Source: Oligoflexales bacterium (GTDB lineage Bacteria; Bdellovibrionota_B; Oligoflexia; Oligoflexales; Bog-1112). Taken from it: DNA of 4,282 nt. Below, piece by piece: positions 1-4,282 of this stretch. The DNA lies in the NCBI GenBank assembly GCA_045106415.1, contig JBGCEP010000041.1:1-4282 (forward strand), read 5' to 3'. The notes beneath the pieces are model-generated. The model was given only the letters and a program-made list of their open reading frames with translations. It was not told the DNA's origin and ran no database searches. Each line of letters opens with the position of its first letter. The first letter of the stretch is position 1. A program made the translations under genes and the position numbers.

Positions 1-644
1 TTTTTTGTTTTATCAAAATAAGTAATAATCCCGCCGTCGAGTTGGTAAACCGATTCGAATCCTTTTTGCTTCATGTAGGAAGTTGCTTTTTCACAACGGA
101 TGCCACCGGTGCAAAAGGTTACGATAGGGATATTCTTTTTACCTTCTAAATTTTGATCAACCCAGTCAGGAAATTGGTCAAAAGACTGAATGTTGGGGTT
201 AACAGCATTTTTGAATGTACCCATATCAACTTCATAGTCATTACGAGTATCGAGGATGATCATATCTTTATTATCATTTTGCCACTGTAGAAAATCTTCA
301 GGGGAGATGTATTCTCCTGTGATTTCATTTGGCTCAATATCTTTTCGAAGAGTAATGATGTGATCTTTGACTTTGACGAGCATGCGACTAAAGGCAGGGC
401 TGTCGTGTTGGTTTACTTTAAAGAGTACGTCCTGGAACAAAGGATTGCTGTGTATATGCTTTTTAAAGCGAGTGATGTTGTCAGGAGAGCCGGTAACCAT
501 TCCATTGATACCCTCTTCTGCGAGGAGAATCGTGCCAAGCATATCAAGTTCTTGCGTAACTTTTTTGAGTTCAGTCCGCAGCTCTTGGGTCTTGTTAATC
601 TCTATGAATTTGTAGAAACTAAGGATTTCGTATGTTTGGCTCAT
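1..644 (-). CDS. trhO: tRNA uridine(34) hydroxylase TrhO / YceA (UPF0176) rhodanese-related protein, 3' end beyond the window edge
   Basis: Manual translation from ATG at 644 (cat 642-644): MSQTYEILSFYKFIEI...LGTILLAEEGINGMVTG...TFCTGGIRCEKATSYMKQKGFESVYQLDGGIITYF. The FYKF, GTILLAxEGING, CTGGIRCEKA and VYQLxGGI motifs are characteristic of TrhO. A purine-rich SD-like AGAGAGGAAA lies at 651-660 on the minus strand. Confidence 0.93.
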   Translation of the reverse strand, partial: MSQTYEILSFYKFIEINKTQELRTELKKVTQELDMLGTILLAEEGINGMVTGSPDNITRFKKHIHSNPLFQDVLFKVNQHDSPAFSRMLVKVKDHIITLRKDIEPNEITGEYISPEDFLQWQNDNKDMIILDTRNDYEVDMGTFKNAVNPNIQSFDQFPDWVDQNLEGKKNIPIVTFCTGGIRCEKATSYMKQKGFESVYQLDGGIITYFDKTK

Positions 645-799
645 TGTGGTTTTCCTCTCTTCTCATATAACAACGAAAGAGTTTTAAACGATCTTATGGA
701 CTTATGTCCAGAGAAAATAAATATTTTGTCGTTGTGGTACGCCTGAGATCTTAGGGGTTTAATTGAGCTGGGCATTAACAGTTCTTTGTGAAAAATGTT

Positions 800-828
800 T
801 TGCTCACGACTTTTATCTATGTTATTAG
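800..828 (+). promoter_or_regulatory. possible sigma70-type promoter for the plus-strand gene pair
   Basis: TTGCTC (800-805), 17 nt spacer, TATTAG (823-828) preceded by TGn, in the divergent intergenic region 645-890. Imperfect match in AT-rich DNA. Confidence 0.25.
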
Positions 829-890
829 GGTGTCGCGCACCTTTGTTGTGGGATTTTTTTTAGAAATTCTTAATTGTAAATGGAATTTAA

Positions 891-1961
891 ATGCGTTTTT
901 TAACTTGTGTTTTTTTACTGATATTGTCGAATAGTGGTTTTAGTCTAGAAGATTATTCAAATGATAGAAGAGTTCATGTGAATGTTAAAGACCGTGTTTT
1001 TGAGTTTCACAAATCGAGCTTTATTGGCCTTGAAGACACAGTTCTTTATAAGAAGATCTTTAGCACAAACTTCGCTGATTCTGTGGATCTAACATATGCC
1101 GCGGGTGTTTATTTAGATACTTTCGAAGGTATTCACTTTGCTATTGAACAAGATTTATCTTATCCGGGTTCAGGTAAAAGAATTTTACCAAAGTGGTTTG
1201 CCGTTCACCGAAACCTTGTTTTTGATGTTTTACCTATTTTCTCAAGCTATGTAAGTCTGGCGGATATTTATTCATTTTACGCTTCTGATCTGAACTTCCT
1301 TGGTCTTAAAGGAAAAGTTGCTGGCCCTGGTTGGTCGAAAATCCGGACTGAGTCGTTTGAGGGGCGAGATTATATCTATTATATTTTGACTATAAATGGT
1401 GCTGATTTTGAATTTGTAGAAGTCCCAGGAGAAGTAGCGGATGAAAGTTCTTTCATGATGTCTCATTGGGTTACCCATCAGCACTGGAGGGCTGTAACAG
1501 GTCAGAGCCCCGCAACGTTTTCTGGCGCTGGTGCCAATTTCCCATTGAAGAATGTTTCTTACAATTGCATTATGAATGAATTTTTTCCTCCTTTGAATGC
1601 AGCGTTTACGGCAGCAGGTTTTGAGGGAGAGCTTTCACTTCCAAGTGATTCGAATTGGCAGATAGTTGCAGATGATTTTGCTGTGAATAAGCCTCAGTAT
1701 TCAGATGTTGGTAAAAGCGCTCTTTCAGATGCTTCTCCAGCTCTTGTTAGGTCAAAATTACGAGGCAAGCTTGGTATGTGGATGTTTGGATCTGTCTGGG
1801 AGTGGGTCGGTATACCTGATGATTTGGGTAATGCTAATCTTCGCGGCGGGAGTTGCTACTCTTCTGTTGAGAGAGTAGGCCCTAACGCGCTGCTTTCGAA
1901 TGACACAGATAGTCGACGTCGCGACTTTGGCTTTCGTTTGTTTAGAGCTAGCACTCATTAA
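891..1961 (+). CDS. exported protein: signal peptide + probable BTB/POZ (KCTD/T1-like) domain + FGE-sulfatase-like CLec domain
   Basis: 356 aa. Hydrophobic N-terminus MRFLTCVFLLILSNSGFS. aa 26-140 has RVHVNVKDRVFEFHKSSF..LEDTVLYKKIFS and ASDLNFLGL, resembling the KCTD BTB pattern. aa ~163-356 has VT..HWRAVTG.SP, FPLKNVSY, LPSDSNW, GMWMFGSVWEWV, RGGS and GFRL, typical of the FGE-sulfatase/SUMF1 fold. GGA upstream at 882-884. Confidence 0.85.
   Translation: MRFLTCVFLLILSNSGFSLEDYSNDRRVHVNVKDRVFEFHKSSFIGLEDTVLYKKIFSTNFADSVDLTYAAGVYLDTFEGIHFAIEQDLSYPGSGKRILPKWFAVHRNLVFDVLPIFSSYVSLADIYSFYASDLNFLGLKGKVAGPGWSKIRTESFEGRDYIYYILTINGADFEFVEVPGEVADESSFMMSHWVTHQHWRAVTGQSPATFSGAGANFPLKNVSYNCIMNEFFPPLNAAFTAAGFEGELSLPSDSNWQIVADDFAVNKPQYSDVGKSALSDASPALVRSKLRGKLGMWMFGSVWEWVGIPDDLGNANLRGGSCYSSVERVGPNALLSNDTDSRRRDFGFRLFRASTH
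1377..1961 (+). repeat. paralogous CLec-domain segment, copy 1 (partner 3347-3958)
   Basis: Roughly half the residues are identical by eye (DFEFVEVPG, FMMSHWVT, FEG, NKPxYSD, WMFGxVWEWVG, FGFRL). Exact 17-mer atgatgtctcattgggt at 1455-1471 and 3443-3459. Confidence 0.9.
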
Positions 1962-2041
1962 TTTCAATCACATACTCATTTTTTGTTGAAGATCGAAGTG
2001 TTTGTTCTTGAGTGTAGAAAAGTAAAGAAAAGGAATTTCTA

Positions 2042-3958
2042 ATGGTAAAGTTTGTTTCATTTTTGTTGATGTTTTGTTCAGGTTTCGCCCTAGGTATGGA
2101 ATTAGAATTGCATACTGATACGAGGTCGGTTGAGAAGTGGCTGGAAGAGAATCGAAATCTCGCACACCCTGCTGAAATTTTACGAGCTGAATTGTTACTT
2201 CAACACCAGTTGGATGCTATTCCAAAGGGTTATGAAAATTTTCCTAAATTTTCTTTTTCGTTGTCTGGTGAAAATATTTCTGATGAATTGTATCTTCTTA
2301 ATTTAGCTAAAGTGTCAAAAGATTTAGAACGTGCTCAGACCTTAATGGAAGGCCGCTCTGAGTGTTTAGAGGGCTTGGAATGTTTGCGTTCAGGTTCTCT
2401 TGAGATGAAAGCGGATGTTGCGATTGGTTCTGAATCTTCAGAATGCCCTGTGTGTACAGATGGTTTTTTGTCTGGTGAGATTATTGTGAAAGAGAGCTGT
2501 GGTCACATATATCATGCACCTTGTGTGAAGCAGGGTCTTTTGGCGTCATTGCACGGTGGGAATGATAAGAATATCTCTTGTCTTGTTAAGGACTGTCCTG
2601 GGTATTTGTCTCCACTTCAGGCTGCAAGTCTGTGTTTGCAGGAGTCTGTTTCTACACGGATACAGATGCAGAAGATGTTGTTGTCACATTTGGAGAAGGT
2701 GGTTTTTTGTCCATCGTGTGGTTTGGGTGTGAAGCGATCTGAGCATGCAGCAAGTGGTGCGTGTGGCCATTGTGCTAAAGAAGTGTGTTTTGATTGCGGT
2801 TATACATCTCACCGTGGTGAAAGTTGTGATTTACAGTTGGAAAAACAGAAAACTTATAGGGAAGTGTTATCTAAAGGTCTTAATGTAGGTCTTTGCCCCC
2901 ATTGTGACTGTTTGATGGAACGAGGGGAGGGTTGTTCTATCATGCGTTGTGGTGATAACGCTCATACGACGAATGATGTAAGCAATCGAGGTTGTGGTCG
3001 AGAGTTTCAGTGGCCGGATCGCAAGCCTGTACCAAATGATTTGAAAGATATCCCTGATCGTTCGAAAAAAACTATAACGACACATTTTAAGACTTTAAGC
3101 CCTGATGATTTGCAGAGGCATATTTTTGAAGGCAAACCACTTTTTGATATTGCTAATGTCATAGGTGTATCGAGTGTAGAAGAAGCTTTGGATGTGATTC
3201 GTTTGGGTGGCAAAATACGAGGCCGGTTTCTAGCTTCAGAGGTTTCAGAAGGTGATCGAGAGATACTTATGAAGTATGGGTGTTTTTTCATTGATGGAAA
3301 GTCTGAAAAATCTTGGGGCTACACCTATAAGGAAGATGGATTTACTTATTATGTGATGACACTTGCAGGTGTTGATTTTGAGTTTGTAGAAGTACCGGGT
3401 AAGCGTATCTTGGGGATTTTAGGGAAGAGAAAATCTTTTTTTATGATGTCTCATTGGGTAACTCAAGGTCAATGGTTTGCAGTTATGGGAGAGAATCCTG
3501 CGGGTTTTGCAGGCCGTGGCTTAGATTTTCCAATGGAGAGTATTTCTTACAATGATGTTGTGAATAATTTTCTTCCACGTCTGAATGTTTTGCTTCAAGG
3601 CGCTAGTTTTGAAGGAAAGTTTAAGCTTCCTGGTGATGCTCAGTGGCAGAGAATGGCAGATAAGAACGTTGCAGCAGAGTTTGCATCGAACAAGCCAAAG
3701 TATTCAGATTTTGGCCAGAATTGGGATTCAGGACAGCCTCTATCAGTGAAGTCTAAGGATCGAGGAAATCTTGGAGCTTGGATGTTTGGGACTGTTTGGG
3801 AATGGGTTGGAACTCTTAATGCCTCTGGTCTCGTTGCTTTACGTGGCGGCAGTTGGGCCGACTACTCGGAGAACGTGGGCCCTTCGGCGCACTTTTCGTA
3901 CAGGTCTGACCACCGCGCCCGCAACTTCGGCTTTCGGCTCTTGAGAGCTTTACCCTGA
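2042..3958 (+). CDS. exported protein: signal peptide + RBR (RING1-IBR-RING2) E3 ubiquitin ligase module + FGE-sulfatase-like CLec domain; putative DGR target
   Basis: 638 aa, SD-like AGGA at 2031-2034, hydrophobic N-terminus MVKFVSFLLMFCSGFALG. RING1: C135,C138,C153,H155,H158,C161,C180,C185. IBR: C223,C226,C241,C244,C249,C252,H257,C262. RING2: CPHC...ERGEGCSIMRC...GCGREFQW. C-terminal domain has VTQGQWFAVMGENP, FPMESISYND, LPGDAQW, MFGTVWEWV, RGGSW, FGFRL. Confidence 0.9.
   Translation: MVKFVSFLLMFCSGFALGMELELHTDTRSVEKWLEENRNLAHPAEILRAELLLQHQLDAIPKGYENFPKFSFSLSGENISDELYLLNLAKVSKDLERAQTLMEGRSECLEGLECLRSGSLEMKADVAIGSESSECPVCTDGFLSGEIIVKESCGHIYHAPCVKQGLLASLHGGNDKNISCLVKDCPGYLSPLQAASLCLQESVSTRIQMQKMLLSHLEKVVFCPSCGLGVKRSEHAASGACGHCAKEVCFDCGYTSHRGESCDLQLEKQKTYREVLSKGLNVGLCPHCDCLMERGEGCSIMRCGDNAHTTNDVSNRGCGREFQWPDRKPVPNDLKDIPDRSKKTITTHFKTLSPDDLQRHIFEGKPLFDIANVIGVSSVEEALDVIRLGGKIRGRFLASEVSEGDREILMKYGCFFIDGKSEKSWGYTYKEDGFTYYVMTLAGVDFEFVEVPGKRILGILGKRKSFFMMSHWVTQGQWFAVMGENPAGFAGRGLDFPMESISYNDVVNNFLPRLNVLLQGASFEGKFKLPGDAQWQRMADKNVAAEFASNKPKYSDFGQNWDSGQPLSVKSKDRGNLGAWMFGTVWEWVGTLNASGLVALRGGSWADYSENVGPSAHFSYRSDHRARNFGFRLLRALP
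2444..3013 (+). other. RBR E3 ligase module (RING1 2444-2596, IBR 2708-2827, RING2 2894-3013)
   Basis: Cys/His spacing and the order of the three clusters match Ariadne/Parkin-type RBRs. The predicted catalytic Cys298 is codon TGT at 2933-2935. Confidence 0.85.
3347..3958 (+). repeat. paralogous CLec-domain segment, copy 2 (partner 1377-1961)
   Basis: Same alignment as copy 1; for example gattttgagtttgtagaagt (3374-3393) versus gattttgaatttgtagaagt (1404-1423). Confidence 0.9.
3842..3940 (+). other. putative DGR variable region (VR)
   Basis: 33 codons from RGGSW to GFRL: 18 end in C, 9 in G, 6 in T, 0 in A, versus 2 C-ending codons in the preceding 33 (3743-3841). Runs GCC GAC TAC and GAC CAC CGC GCC CGC AAC TTC sit where DGR templates for CLec targets typically carry AAC runs. 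Confidence 0.72.
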
Positions 3959-3962
3959 GTAA

Positions 3963-3984
3963 GCATAAAAGCGAAGCTTTATGC
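3963..3984 (+). promoter_or_regulatory. GAA-loop DNA hairpin, candidate DGR cis-acting target-recognition stem-loop
   Basis: GCATAAAAGC-GAA-GCTTTATGC: 9 bp stem with one bulged A, core GCGAAGC, beginning 4 nt after the TGA stop. No poly-T tract follows. Confidence 0.65.
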
Positions 3985-4055
3985 GATTGTTATCCTTTTA
4001 CCGTTAAGCCTGGCCGGATGGAGGCCAATAATCGGAATCTTTATTTTTAGGTTAA

Positions 4056-4104
4056 GGAGCCGTGAAGGTTAGCGAGCGTGAGCGGGCGGCCTTCAAAGGG
4101 TTCC
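4056..4104 (+). other. long imperfect GC-rich stem-loop between convergent genes (terminator-like or REP-like)
   Basis: GGAGCC (4056-4061) pairs with GGTTCC (4099-4104) and TGAAGGTT (4063-4070) with GGCCTTCA (4088-4095), using three G-U pairs; 17 nt loop AGCGAGCGTGAGCGGGC. Confidence 0.4.
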
Positions 4105-4159
4105 GTTGTTGTGAGATTTTTTTAAAAATTTTTAAGTATAAATCCGGCATTGATCACAC

Positions 4160-4282
4160 CTAATTTTGATTTAGAGAATAAATATCAGATGCAGAATTTG
4201 AAATCATTAATATGATTTTTCTTCGTAGGTCAGTAACACCTGTCACTAAGACTTGCATCTGCCCATCAAGTTCAATGTAAAC
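4160..4282 (-). CDS. 3' end of a convergent CDS, possibly an IS1634-like transposase C-terminus
   Basis: Open frame from the window edge to TAG (cta 4160-4162): VYIELDGQMQVLVTGVTDLRRKIILMISNSASDIYSLNQN*. Resembles from memory the IS1634 tail pattern (xxLTxxRRxILxxxGxxxxxYY), but only 40 aa are visible. Confidence 0.4.
   Translation of the reverse strand, partial: VYIELDGQMQVLVTGVTDLRRKIILMISNSASDIYSLNQN

Follow-up and report, generated by a model that had tools for sequence, protein, structure and literature searches.

Ligases of the RBR type, in which RING1, IBR and RING2 domains follow one another, are treated as eukaryotic enzymes in passages of PMC13728172. The locus described here raises the question of whether such a module can belong to a bacterium and, if so, what it could do there. 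The locus is a stretch of 4,282 bp (contig JBGCEP010000041.1, positions 1 to 4,282), in the following called the window, which contains three genes: trhO, a second open reading frame termed ORF2, and the gene at the centre of this work, referred to as the RBR gene. An earlier note on this DNA had read the latter as a eukaryote-type RBR ligase in a gene with bacterial features, with a non-canonical RING2. The answer that we favour, with moderate confidence, is that the gene encodes a Sec-exported modular bacterial protein with a genuine RBR-type E3 module of a distinct conserved subfamily, which would ubiquitinate host targets by way of a lectin-fold domain. The RBR gene can be divided into the following features:

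2042..3958, plus strand: RBR gene, 638 amino acids plus stop, from the translation
2042..2095, plus strand: signal-peptide-like N-terminus MVKFVSFLLMFCSGFALG (aa 1-18), from hydropathy
2096..2428, plus strand: pre-RING1 region (aa 19-129), aligning in part with a stretch conserved in clade relatives
2444..2596, plus strand: RING1, the presumed E2~ubiquitin-binding finger (Pfam zf-RING_2)
2708..2827, plus strand: IBR (Pfam IBR, aa 210-262)
2894..3022, plus strand: variant RING2/Rcat, aligned with the Rcat of ARIH2, with one zinc site
2933..2935, plus strand: codon of Cys298, the presumed thioester-forming catalytic Cys, from column conservation
3023..3340, plus strand: linker or middle region (aa 328-433)
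3341..3949, plus strand: FGE-sulfatase-like (C-type-lectin-fold) C-terminal domain without Cys, a presumed target- or ligand-binding module common to ORF2

The core of the module, nucleotides 2444-3013, runs from the codon of C135 through that of W324 of the open reading frame 2042..3958 (+). Cysteines are concentrated here, with 20 in the 196 residues of aa 130-325 versus 4 in the 442 residues elsewhere in the protein. RING1 has a full eight-ligand cross-brace set of putative zinc ligands (C135, C138, C153, H155, H158, C161, C180 and C185), which is of the C3H2C3 kind with C-x4-C as its last pair; in the alignments of relatives, its columns either do not vary or are conserved to 90% or more. 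The IBR has a putative C6HC set (C223, C226, C241, C244, C249, C252, H257 and C262), also conserved in relatives. In the case of RING2, the residues C285-P-H-C288, E293, G297-C298-S-I-M301, C303-G-x-N306, G317-C318-G319, F322-x-W324 and R327 could be assigned, and a 14-residue insert, G304-DNAHTTNDVSNR-G317 (the insert also written GDNAHTTNDVSNRG), lies between C303 and C318. After C318 the protein reads G-R-E-F322-Q-W324-P-D326 where a canonical RING2 has FCWxC. The second zinc site of RING2 (F-C-W-x-C and two later ligands) is absent, the next Cys being C414, and position Cys+2 is occupied by Ile300 in place of the canonical-type His, a residue that is common in RBRs, not universal. The residue numbers that had been given earlier for RING2 (CPxC, Cys298, and C285, C288, C303 and C318 with the insert) are all correct, and its GCSIM without a catalytic His and its FQWPD without a second zinc site were confirmed in the translation. 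The complete RING1 and IBR ligand sets listed at that time are likewise borne out by the translation, the Pfam scores and the conserved columns.

Homology and fold support that the open reading frame 2042..3958 encodes an RBR-type RING1-IBR-RING2 module. Pfam matched zf-RING_2 with 27.9 bits (cut-off 27.3) and IBR with 28.2 bits (cut-off 24.3). For aa 285-327 there was no match to Pfam IBR, IBR_1, IBR_2 or Rcat at E <= 1, which is consistent with a non-canonical RING2. When the PDB was searched with phmmer, the top match overall was RNF4, over its RING only, and aa 133-308 were colinear with ARIH2 137-320 (E 1.1e-3). In this alignment CPHCDCLMERGEGC298 was paired with ARIH2 CPKCNICIEKNGGC, placing the catalytic G-C of ARIH2 opposite G297-C298. 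Among the matches listed, the ESM Atlas gave IBR/RBR clusters exclusively, with a best score of 0.93.

When aa 120-340 were modelled with AlphaFold on a 113-row alignment, the mean predicted local distance difference test score (pLDDT) was 85.7, with 90-94 in RING1 and 95 over GCGREFQWPD of RING2; in the numbering of the 221-aa construct, the RING2 strands of the model lie at residues 163-165, 172-174, 181-183 and 202-204. Foldseek found 46 PDB matches to this model at E <= 1e-3, and all of those listed were ARIH1/2, HOIL-1, HOIP, RNF216 or Parkin, the best being 7od1 (E 1.1e-7) and 5udh (E 2.7e-7). Global template modelling (TM) scores versus solved RBRs were just 0.2-0.4, which may reflect differing domain arrangements. 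A non-RBR zinc family such as zinc ribbon, PHD or LIM, a kind of match that the earlier note had named among the cases that could refute it, was rejected, as such matches were weak, single-finger and non-colinear. The AlphaFold check that it had proposed came out in favour of an RBR. Altogether, Pfam, the ARIH2 alignment, the model and Foldseek identify a eukaryote-type RBR, and the signal-peptide-like start, trhO and the FGE-like fusion are among the bacterial features of its gene.

Comparison with the Ariadne RBRs (ARIH2/TRIAD1 and ARIH1/HHARI) makes the particularities of the module clear. Like in these proteins, RING1, IBR and RING2 are colinear, RING1 ends in C-x4-C, and RING2 shows the pattern CPxC…E-K/R…G-C…C with its Cys in the same column. 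Unlike them, the window protein is without an Ariadne domain, has Ile at Cys+2 and has FQWPD, so that the second zinc site is missing. Its RING1 is C3H2C3, the 14-residue insert stands ahead of ligand four of zinc site 1, and the module is preceded by a signal-peptide-like N-terminus and followed by an FGE-like domain at the C-terminus.

Judged from the sequences of its relatives, the odd RING2 is a conserved subfamily signature and not decay private to the window gene. An exhaustive HMMER search with aa 120-340 returned 435 representative proteins at E <= 1e-3 (query included), with 23 at E <= 1e-10 and 2, the query included, at E <= 1e-30. Word-index searches for homologues, whether started from the full-length protein or from a 17-sequence profile, brought back the query alone, a result that is uninformative on novelty given the 435 HMMER relatives. 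The strict variant pattern C-x2-C-x6-10-G-C-x4-C-x8-35-G-C-G-x2-F-x-W was found in 37 of the 150 matches listed, window protein included, and a strict canonical pattern (G-C-x-H…C…C-W-x-C) in 31 of them; the remainder fit neither. The motif of the subfamily can be written as C-x2-C-x6-10-G-C-x4-C-G-x-N…G-C-G-x2-F-x-W-x2-R. In the nearest relatives all RING1 and IBR ligands are invariant or nearly so, together with the RING2 residues C285, P286, C288, E293, G297, C298, C303, G304, N306, G317, C318, G319, F322, W324 and R327.

A tree was then calculated from the RBR region of the window protein and 112 of the 149 other listed matches; the 37 left out were chosen by eye and comprised matches stopping before RING2, multi-stretch RING repeats and very long proteins. 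Three further rows with fewer than 140 filled columns (P0093, P0114 and P0144) were removed, and the resulting 110-row tree (quick IQ-TREE, 185 columns) is unrooted. It takes up the phylogeny that had been suggested as a check and splits 43 variant rows, the window protein included, from 67 canonical RBR rows with a Shimodaira-Hasegawa-like approximate likelihood ratio test (SH-aLRT) support of 98. Three groups could be distinguished within the 43 rows, namely a 25-row clade (support 94), an 11-row clade (94) and a 7-row group (93). The window protein lies within the 25-row clade, where P0004 is its sister (SH-aLRT 99, 48% identity). A non-canonical RING2 therefore stands as a feature; as a peculiarity of this one gene it does not, being the signature of 43 of the 110 rows.

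Because the 185 columns include the RING2 trait itself, the tree was rebuilt from RING1 and IBR alone (137 columns). On this second tree the 43-row label required 3 changes versus a mean of 34.1 for shuffled labels (counted for the complementary 67-row label), and the 25-row and 11-row groups required 2 changes and 1 change, respectively. No starred branch of it holds the window protein, and the RING1 and IBR tree supports relatedness of the variant rows, falling short of proving their monophyly.

The distribution of the single traits was quantified as well. Scoring the trait 'no Cys at 204/207' by column was noisy (60 of 110 rows scored, with misaligned or truncated canonical rows among them), and counts by regular expression on the raw sequences were used instead. 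The second-site C-x2-C was present in 0/43 subfamily rows versus 49/67 canonical rows, and a His at Cys+2 in 4/43 versus 47/67. A Cys in the catalytic column was present in 41/43 subfamily and 67/67 canonical rows; as this amounts to 108 of 110 rows, the Cys is under selection. P0084 has the insert yet retains F-C-W-I-C and groups with canonical rows, a combination that shows how the variant and canonical forms correspond. In two members of the window protein's clade, P0033 and P0061, the catalytic Cys is lost (Asp or Leu stands there) and the RING2 insert is shortened, with the signal-peptide-like start kept; these two proteins may be pseudo-ligases.

Important insight into the subfamily can be gained from the domains to which the module is joined. 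A fixed hydropathy rule found signal-peptide-like N-termini in 15/25 rows of the window protein's clade, 1/11 and 1/7 rows of the other two groups and 0/67 canonical rows. For the window protein itself, the mean hydropathy is 2.17 across 12 residues from residue 1. Pfam partners in the 25-row clade were pentapeptide repeats (8/25), Lcl_C (2/25, P0006 and P0011, with E about 1e-4, under the curated cut-off) and, in single rows each, ankyrin repeats, Tudor-like repeats, and a beta-roll or Tudor-knot; an FGE-sulfatase domain was found within this clade in the window protein only. Ahead of RING1, the alignment of nearest relatives shows the clade consensus L..IP..L … Y..E.T..I; no Pfam family was matched by aa 19-129 of the window protein. 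By its architectures and composition, the 25-row clade looks bacterial. The 7-row group, in which SAP and ZZ are the partner domains and signal peptides are not convincing, looks eukaryotic. In the case of the 11-row clade, the fraction of F/Y/M/I/N/K was 0.40-0.51 in 10/11 rows and a strongly hydrophobic, transmembrane-like C-terminal segment was present in 9/11, and a giant virus or an AT-rich protist are candidate sources. This clade includes P0016, P0019, P0021, P0022, P0024, P0028, P0031, P0034, P0048 and P0059, which are AT-rich (Asn/Ile/Lys-rich) proteins beginning directly at RING1.

The variant subfamily (P0004-P0136) thus comprises eukaryote-type members with SAP and ZZ domains and AT-rich members, and the window protein differs from its other members, whose partners are pentapeptide, Lcl_C, ankyrin, Tudor-like, SAP, ZZ or transmembrane-like segments, and among which it alone has an FGE-like domain. 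Its RING2 tail, F-Q-W-P-D-R-K-P, is nearer to the eukaryote-type rows than to most of its own clade, and the eukaryote-type P0032 is 55% identical to it across the RING2 stretch.

The C-terminal part of the protein bears on what the module could act upon. Pfam FGE-sulfatase (PF03781) matched aa 464-635 with 35.5 bits (cut-off 23.3). A phmmer search of the C-terminal 299 aa found nothing significant in the PDB, and the middle region, aa 328-433, gave no match in Pfam or PDB. With a 6-sequence profile of aa 434-636, PDB matches were obtained to TvpA (2y3c, 1.3e-10), PorK/GldK (5.5e-8) and SUMF2 (2.8e-6), and also to CalU17 and a CotH-labelled entry. Several of these, namely TvpA, PorK/GldK and SUMF2, are FGE-fold proteins that are non-catalytic and have binding or structural roles. 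Catalysis by FGE requires a Cys pair near the C-terminus. Since the last Cys of the RBR protein is C414, this pair is lacking, and the domain was therefore classed as an FGE-fold binding domain and not as an FGE. It resembles the non-catalytic FGE-fold proteins (T. denticola TvpA, PorK/GldK, SUMF2/pFGE) by the profile and Pfam match of aa 434-636, and it shares with pFGE the absence of the catalytic Cys pair. Unlike in these proteins, it follows an RBR module and has no Cys after C414.

The same domain is present in the neighbouring ORF2. Between aa 434-636 of the RBR protein and aa 161-353 of ORF2 the identity is 50% (101/204, E 4e-62), and ORF2 also begins with a signal-peptide-like N-terminus. 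When 844 candidates were searched with the C-terminal domain region, 6 proteins, the query among them, matched at E <= 1e-5. Its relatives are P0153 (55%), P0154 (58%) and P0155 (57%), plus two distant proteins. P0154, encoded on a 4628-bp contig, also has the ORF2 head (46% identity) and is orthologous to ORF2, P0153 and P0155 have a third head type in common, and P0155 is named by NCBI from an Oligoflexales bacterium metagenome-assembled genome. One C-terminal domain is therefore joined to at least three different heads, which suggests that the FGE-like C-terminal domains mark a family of modular, putatively exported proteins.

The head of ORF2 (aa 19-165, nucleotides 945-1385) possibly has a BTB-like fold. 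All 10 of 10 Atlas structure rows were BTB or BTB_2 clusters (TM 0.45-0.54); no Pfam BTB match was found at E <= 10 and no sequence match in the PDB. An AlphaFold model of this head, based on 2 sequences only, had a pLDDT of 49.7, and Foldseek with this low-confidence model found no match at E <= 1e-3; KCTD16, KCTD7 and NAC1 came up only near E 1. As a different head stands on the same C-terminal domain next door, the pair looks like two effector heads for one ligand.

A mechanism can be proposed on this basis. RING1 (C135-C185) would bind the E2~ubiquitin of a eukaryotic host, ubiquitin would be moved as a thioester onto Cys298 of the variant RING2, and it would finally pass from there to a target that the Cys-less FGE-like lectin-fold domain binds. 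A single zinc (C285, C288, C303 and C318) would hold the variant RING2 together, the second zinc knuckle being replaced by the conserved G-C-G-x-x-F-x-W-x-x-R strand. The analysis itself establishes the domain architecture, the homology, the fold, the conservation of the subfamily and the paralogy of the C-terminal domains; ligase activity, export, an action on eukaryotic host cells or inside them, the zinc ligands and what the C-terminal domain does are predictions.

Several points weigh against this proposal. In passages of PMC11354881, the His at Cys+2 of RBRs is described as promoting deprotonation of the acceptor lysine, and in the window protein Ile300 replaces this His. Its loss means that either another conserved residue substitutes for it, the C-G-x-N-A-x-D stretch being a candidate, or that the acceptor chemistry differs. 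One zinc site is gone, and the Pfam RING2 models miss the domain. Sec export would put a 21-Cys domain into the oxidising periplasm. Within the window there is no secretion-system gene and no E1, E2, ubiquitin gene or eukaryote-association marker. The ligase activity is itself a predicted one, and the relatives come without taxa, so that the labels bacterial, AT-rich and eukaryote-type were inferred from architecture and composition. The putative link to Oligoflexales is one domain of one named relative. A scan of GTDB genomes with two peptide patterns yielded no close relative, a scope that does not demonstrate absence of the family from these genomes, and tblastn versus plasmids gave no match. 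The sole GTDB match (L001 7161-8813, Enterococcus sp. PF1-24) was rejected as spurious, with the zinc-ribbon GKVVFCPSCG shared by chance; this Enterococcus open reading frame, of 550 aa, is methyltransferase-like by eye and unrelated.

The loss of the His and of the second zinc knuckle leads to another explanation, which we consider possible and clearly less probable, namely that the protein is an RBR by descent with another function. It would then modify non-lysine acceptors (Ser/Thr, sugar or lipid hydroxyls), or serve as a trap for E2~ubiquitin or ubiquitin that blocks host ubiquitination. The different frequencies of the His at Cys+2 in subfamily and canonical rows given above point in this direction, as does the conserved polar C-G-x-N-A-x-D after the Cys, of which, in the nearest-relatives alignment, G304 never varies and N306 is conserved to 90% or more. 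Lectin-type partner folds in the clade (FGE-like here, Lcl_C in P0006 and P0011) would suit such acceptors, and HOIL-1, which makes ester-linked ubiquitin, is among the closest PDB structures. However, the catalytic Cys kept in 41 of 43 rows favours thioester chemistry over a decoy, and 20 of the 67 canonical rows are also without the His, so that its loss alone predicts no new chemistry. A more far-reaching version, which we regard as improbable, is that exported one-zinc, His-less RBRs ubiquitinate hydroxyls of glycans or other non-protein ligands on lectin-fold domains, that ORF2 is a BTB-like mimic of a Cullin-3 adaptor for the same ligand, and that the subfamily moved among protists, giant viruses and bacteria. 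If this were true, one locus would hit a single host target by two independent ubiquitination routes.

Other explanations concern the organism. That the fragment is non-bacterial, coming from a giant virus, a eukaryote or an assembly chimera with a viral or eukaryotic RBR, seems very unlikely to us. The contig is short, the named Atlas neighbours are all eukaryotic except one Nucleocytoviricota cluster, and giant viruses of the Klosneuvirus type have RBR-type E3s. Indeed the best BFVD structure matches were giant-virus RBR E3s (E 1.1e-10 to 3.3e-8, 18-24% identity), with that of Hokovirus at 1.1e-10, and the proteins of Hokovirus (HKV1 A0A1V0SFZ0), Fadolivirus and Klosneuvirus resemble the window protein as RBR modules outside cellular eukaryotes. 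No giant-virus RBR is known to have a signal peptide or an FGE-like domain. Against such an origin speak the neighbouring TrhO, identified at equivalog level, the intronless, close-packed genes with SD-like (Shine-Dalgarno-like) motifs, the signal-peptide-like N-termini and the pentapeptide and Lcl_C partners in the nearest clade. The RBR is moreover fused in frame to a domain common to ORF2 and to an Oligoflexales-named protein, and the GC content and the GC content at third codon positions (GC3) are even across the parts. The fusion and the even composition speak against a chimera in particular, and a chimeric join within the open reading frame that keeps the frame is unlikely. We give least credence to the explanation that the protein serves the bacterium itself, in ubiquitin-like conjugation, defence or extracytoplasmic zinc or redox functions, with no eukaryotic target. 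It would account for the missing host marker in the window, FGE-like domains have been reported as sensor modules of bacterial conflict systems, and many Bdellovibrionota are predators of bacteria and not eukaryote-dwelling. Yet no E1, E2, ubiquitin-like or JAB gene is adjacent (window open reading frames searched with Pfam; PADLOC was not searched), the signal-peptide-like N-terminus would take the module out of the cytoplasm and so to a place where conjugation, which depends on ATP, is impossible, and subfamily members have the eukaryote-type partners SAP and ZZ.

We therefore return to a Sec-exported bacterial RBR protein with a host target. The organism that carries the window is probably Oligoflexia- or Bdellovibrionota-like, Oligoflexales being members of Bdellovibrionota. 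The earlier note had gone on to propose direct acquisition from a protist host. Such a direct step stays hypothetical, as the nearest relatives form a 25-row bacterial-type clade, the composition is ameliorated and no root is set for the tree. For the variant subfamily as a whole, an origin in eukaryotes would be plausible; if there was a transfer, it probably took place long ago, with later spread among bacteria.

In terms of known systems, a related architecture has been described in chlamydiae (Domman et al. 2014, PMC4209131). As the passages of that paper concerned describe it, the NEX1 and PEX1 effectors begin with eukaryote-type heads (F-box, RING/U-box, BTB) and end in an interaction domain that they have in common, their genes are arranged in tandem, and in Neochlamydia the heads of NEX1a (F-box) and NEX1b (RING/U-box) are swapped on leucine-rich repeats (LRRs). 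The window proteins are thus like NEX1a/NEX1b of Neochlamydia and PEX1 of Protochlamydia in carrying swapped, putative ubiquitin-ligase heads on a shared interaction domain (PMC4209131). Unlike the window protein, the chlamydial heads in these passages are adaptors or simple RING/U-box domains and not a thioester-forming RBR, and their partners are LRRs (PMC4209131). Delivery of NEX1/PEX1 was tested there by a type III secretion assay, whereas the N-terminus of the window protein looks Sec-type (PMC4209131). The words IBR and RBR have 0 occurrences in PMC4209131.

In the open-access literature and bioRxiv, no description of a bacterial RBR ligase or of this RING2 variant was found. Known bacterial ubiquitin-ligase effectors mimic HECT, RING/U-box, F-box or BTB proteins, or use unrelated folds (NEL, SidC, SidE). 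The domain matches themselves are not new, as the automatic Pfam labels RING, IBR and FGE-sulfatase are already on the protein in the database. What is new is that a module with the descent and fold of an RBR lacks two features typical of RING2 and occurs in bacterial-type, putatively exported proteins, with a partner-domain logic that suggests host targeting. If the protein is active, RBR-type thioester ligases would be added to the bacterial effector repertoire, and Oligoflexia-like Bdellovibrionota would be indicated as manipulators of eukaryotic hosts. An active protein would also be a natural minimal Rcat, with one zinc and without the His at Cys+2, in which the roles of the second zinc knuckle and of this His could be probed. 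The C-terminal domain common to two adjacent genes offers a direct handle on the target.

The remaining features of the window are the following:

644..3, minus strand: trhO, first 214 codons (5' part), cut by the left window edge; a housekeeping neighbour
645..890: AT-rich divergent intergenic region between trhO and ORF2, GC 0.32-0.34
891..1961, plus strand: ORF2, 356 aa, with a signal-peptide-like start, a head (aa 19-160) and an FGE-like C-terminal domain
2030..2034, plus strand: SD-like AAGGA, 7 nt 5' of the ATG of the RBR gene
3959..4282: downstream non-coding stretch, 324 bp

The RBR gene and its neighbours are intronless and compact, and one gene (ORF2) separates the RBR gene from trhO. 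The trhO product matched the NCBIfam equivalog NF001133 (TrhO) with 250.9 bits (cut-off 170) and consists of the Pfam domains UPF0176_N and Rhodanese; a GAGG SD-like motif lies upstream of its ATG. Consequently, the intronless gene, the SD site and the nearby trhO, which had been cited earlier for a bacterial context, hold true (AAGGA 7 nt upstream; TrhO equivalog at 250.9 bits). Promoter and terminator scans of the window showed no excess over shuffles; in the intergenic region 645..890 there were 9 promoter-like sites versus a shuffle mean of 8.0. Scans of the whole window with Rfam and for tRNA gave no match. The stretch 3959..4282 is without an open reading frame of at least 50 aa, tRNA or Rfam match, and the predicted fold of the downstream 185 nt was not better than shuffles (z -0.75).

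Along the window, GC varies between 0.32 and 0.51, with its minimum in the trhO/ORF2 intergenic region. The RBR part has a GC of 0.45 and a GC3 of 0.36, neither of which departs from the values elsewhere in the window, and GC3 over seven window parts was 0.29-0.42. Values of GC up to 0.51 are reached near 3751-4050.

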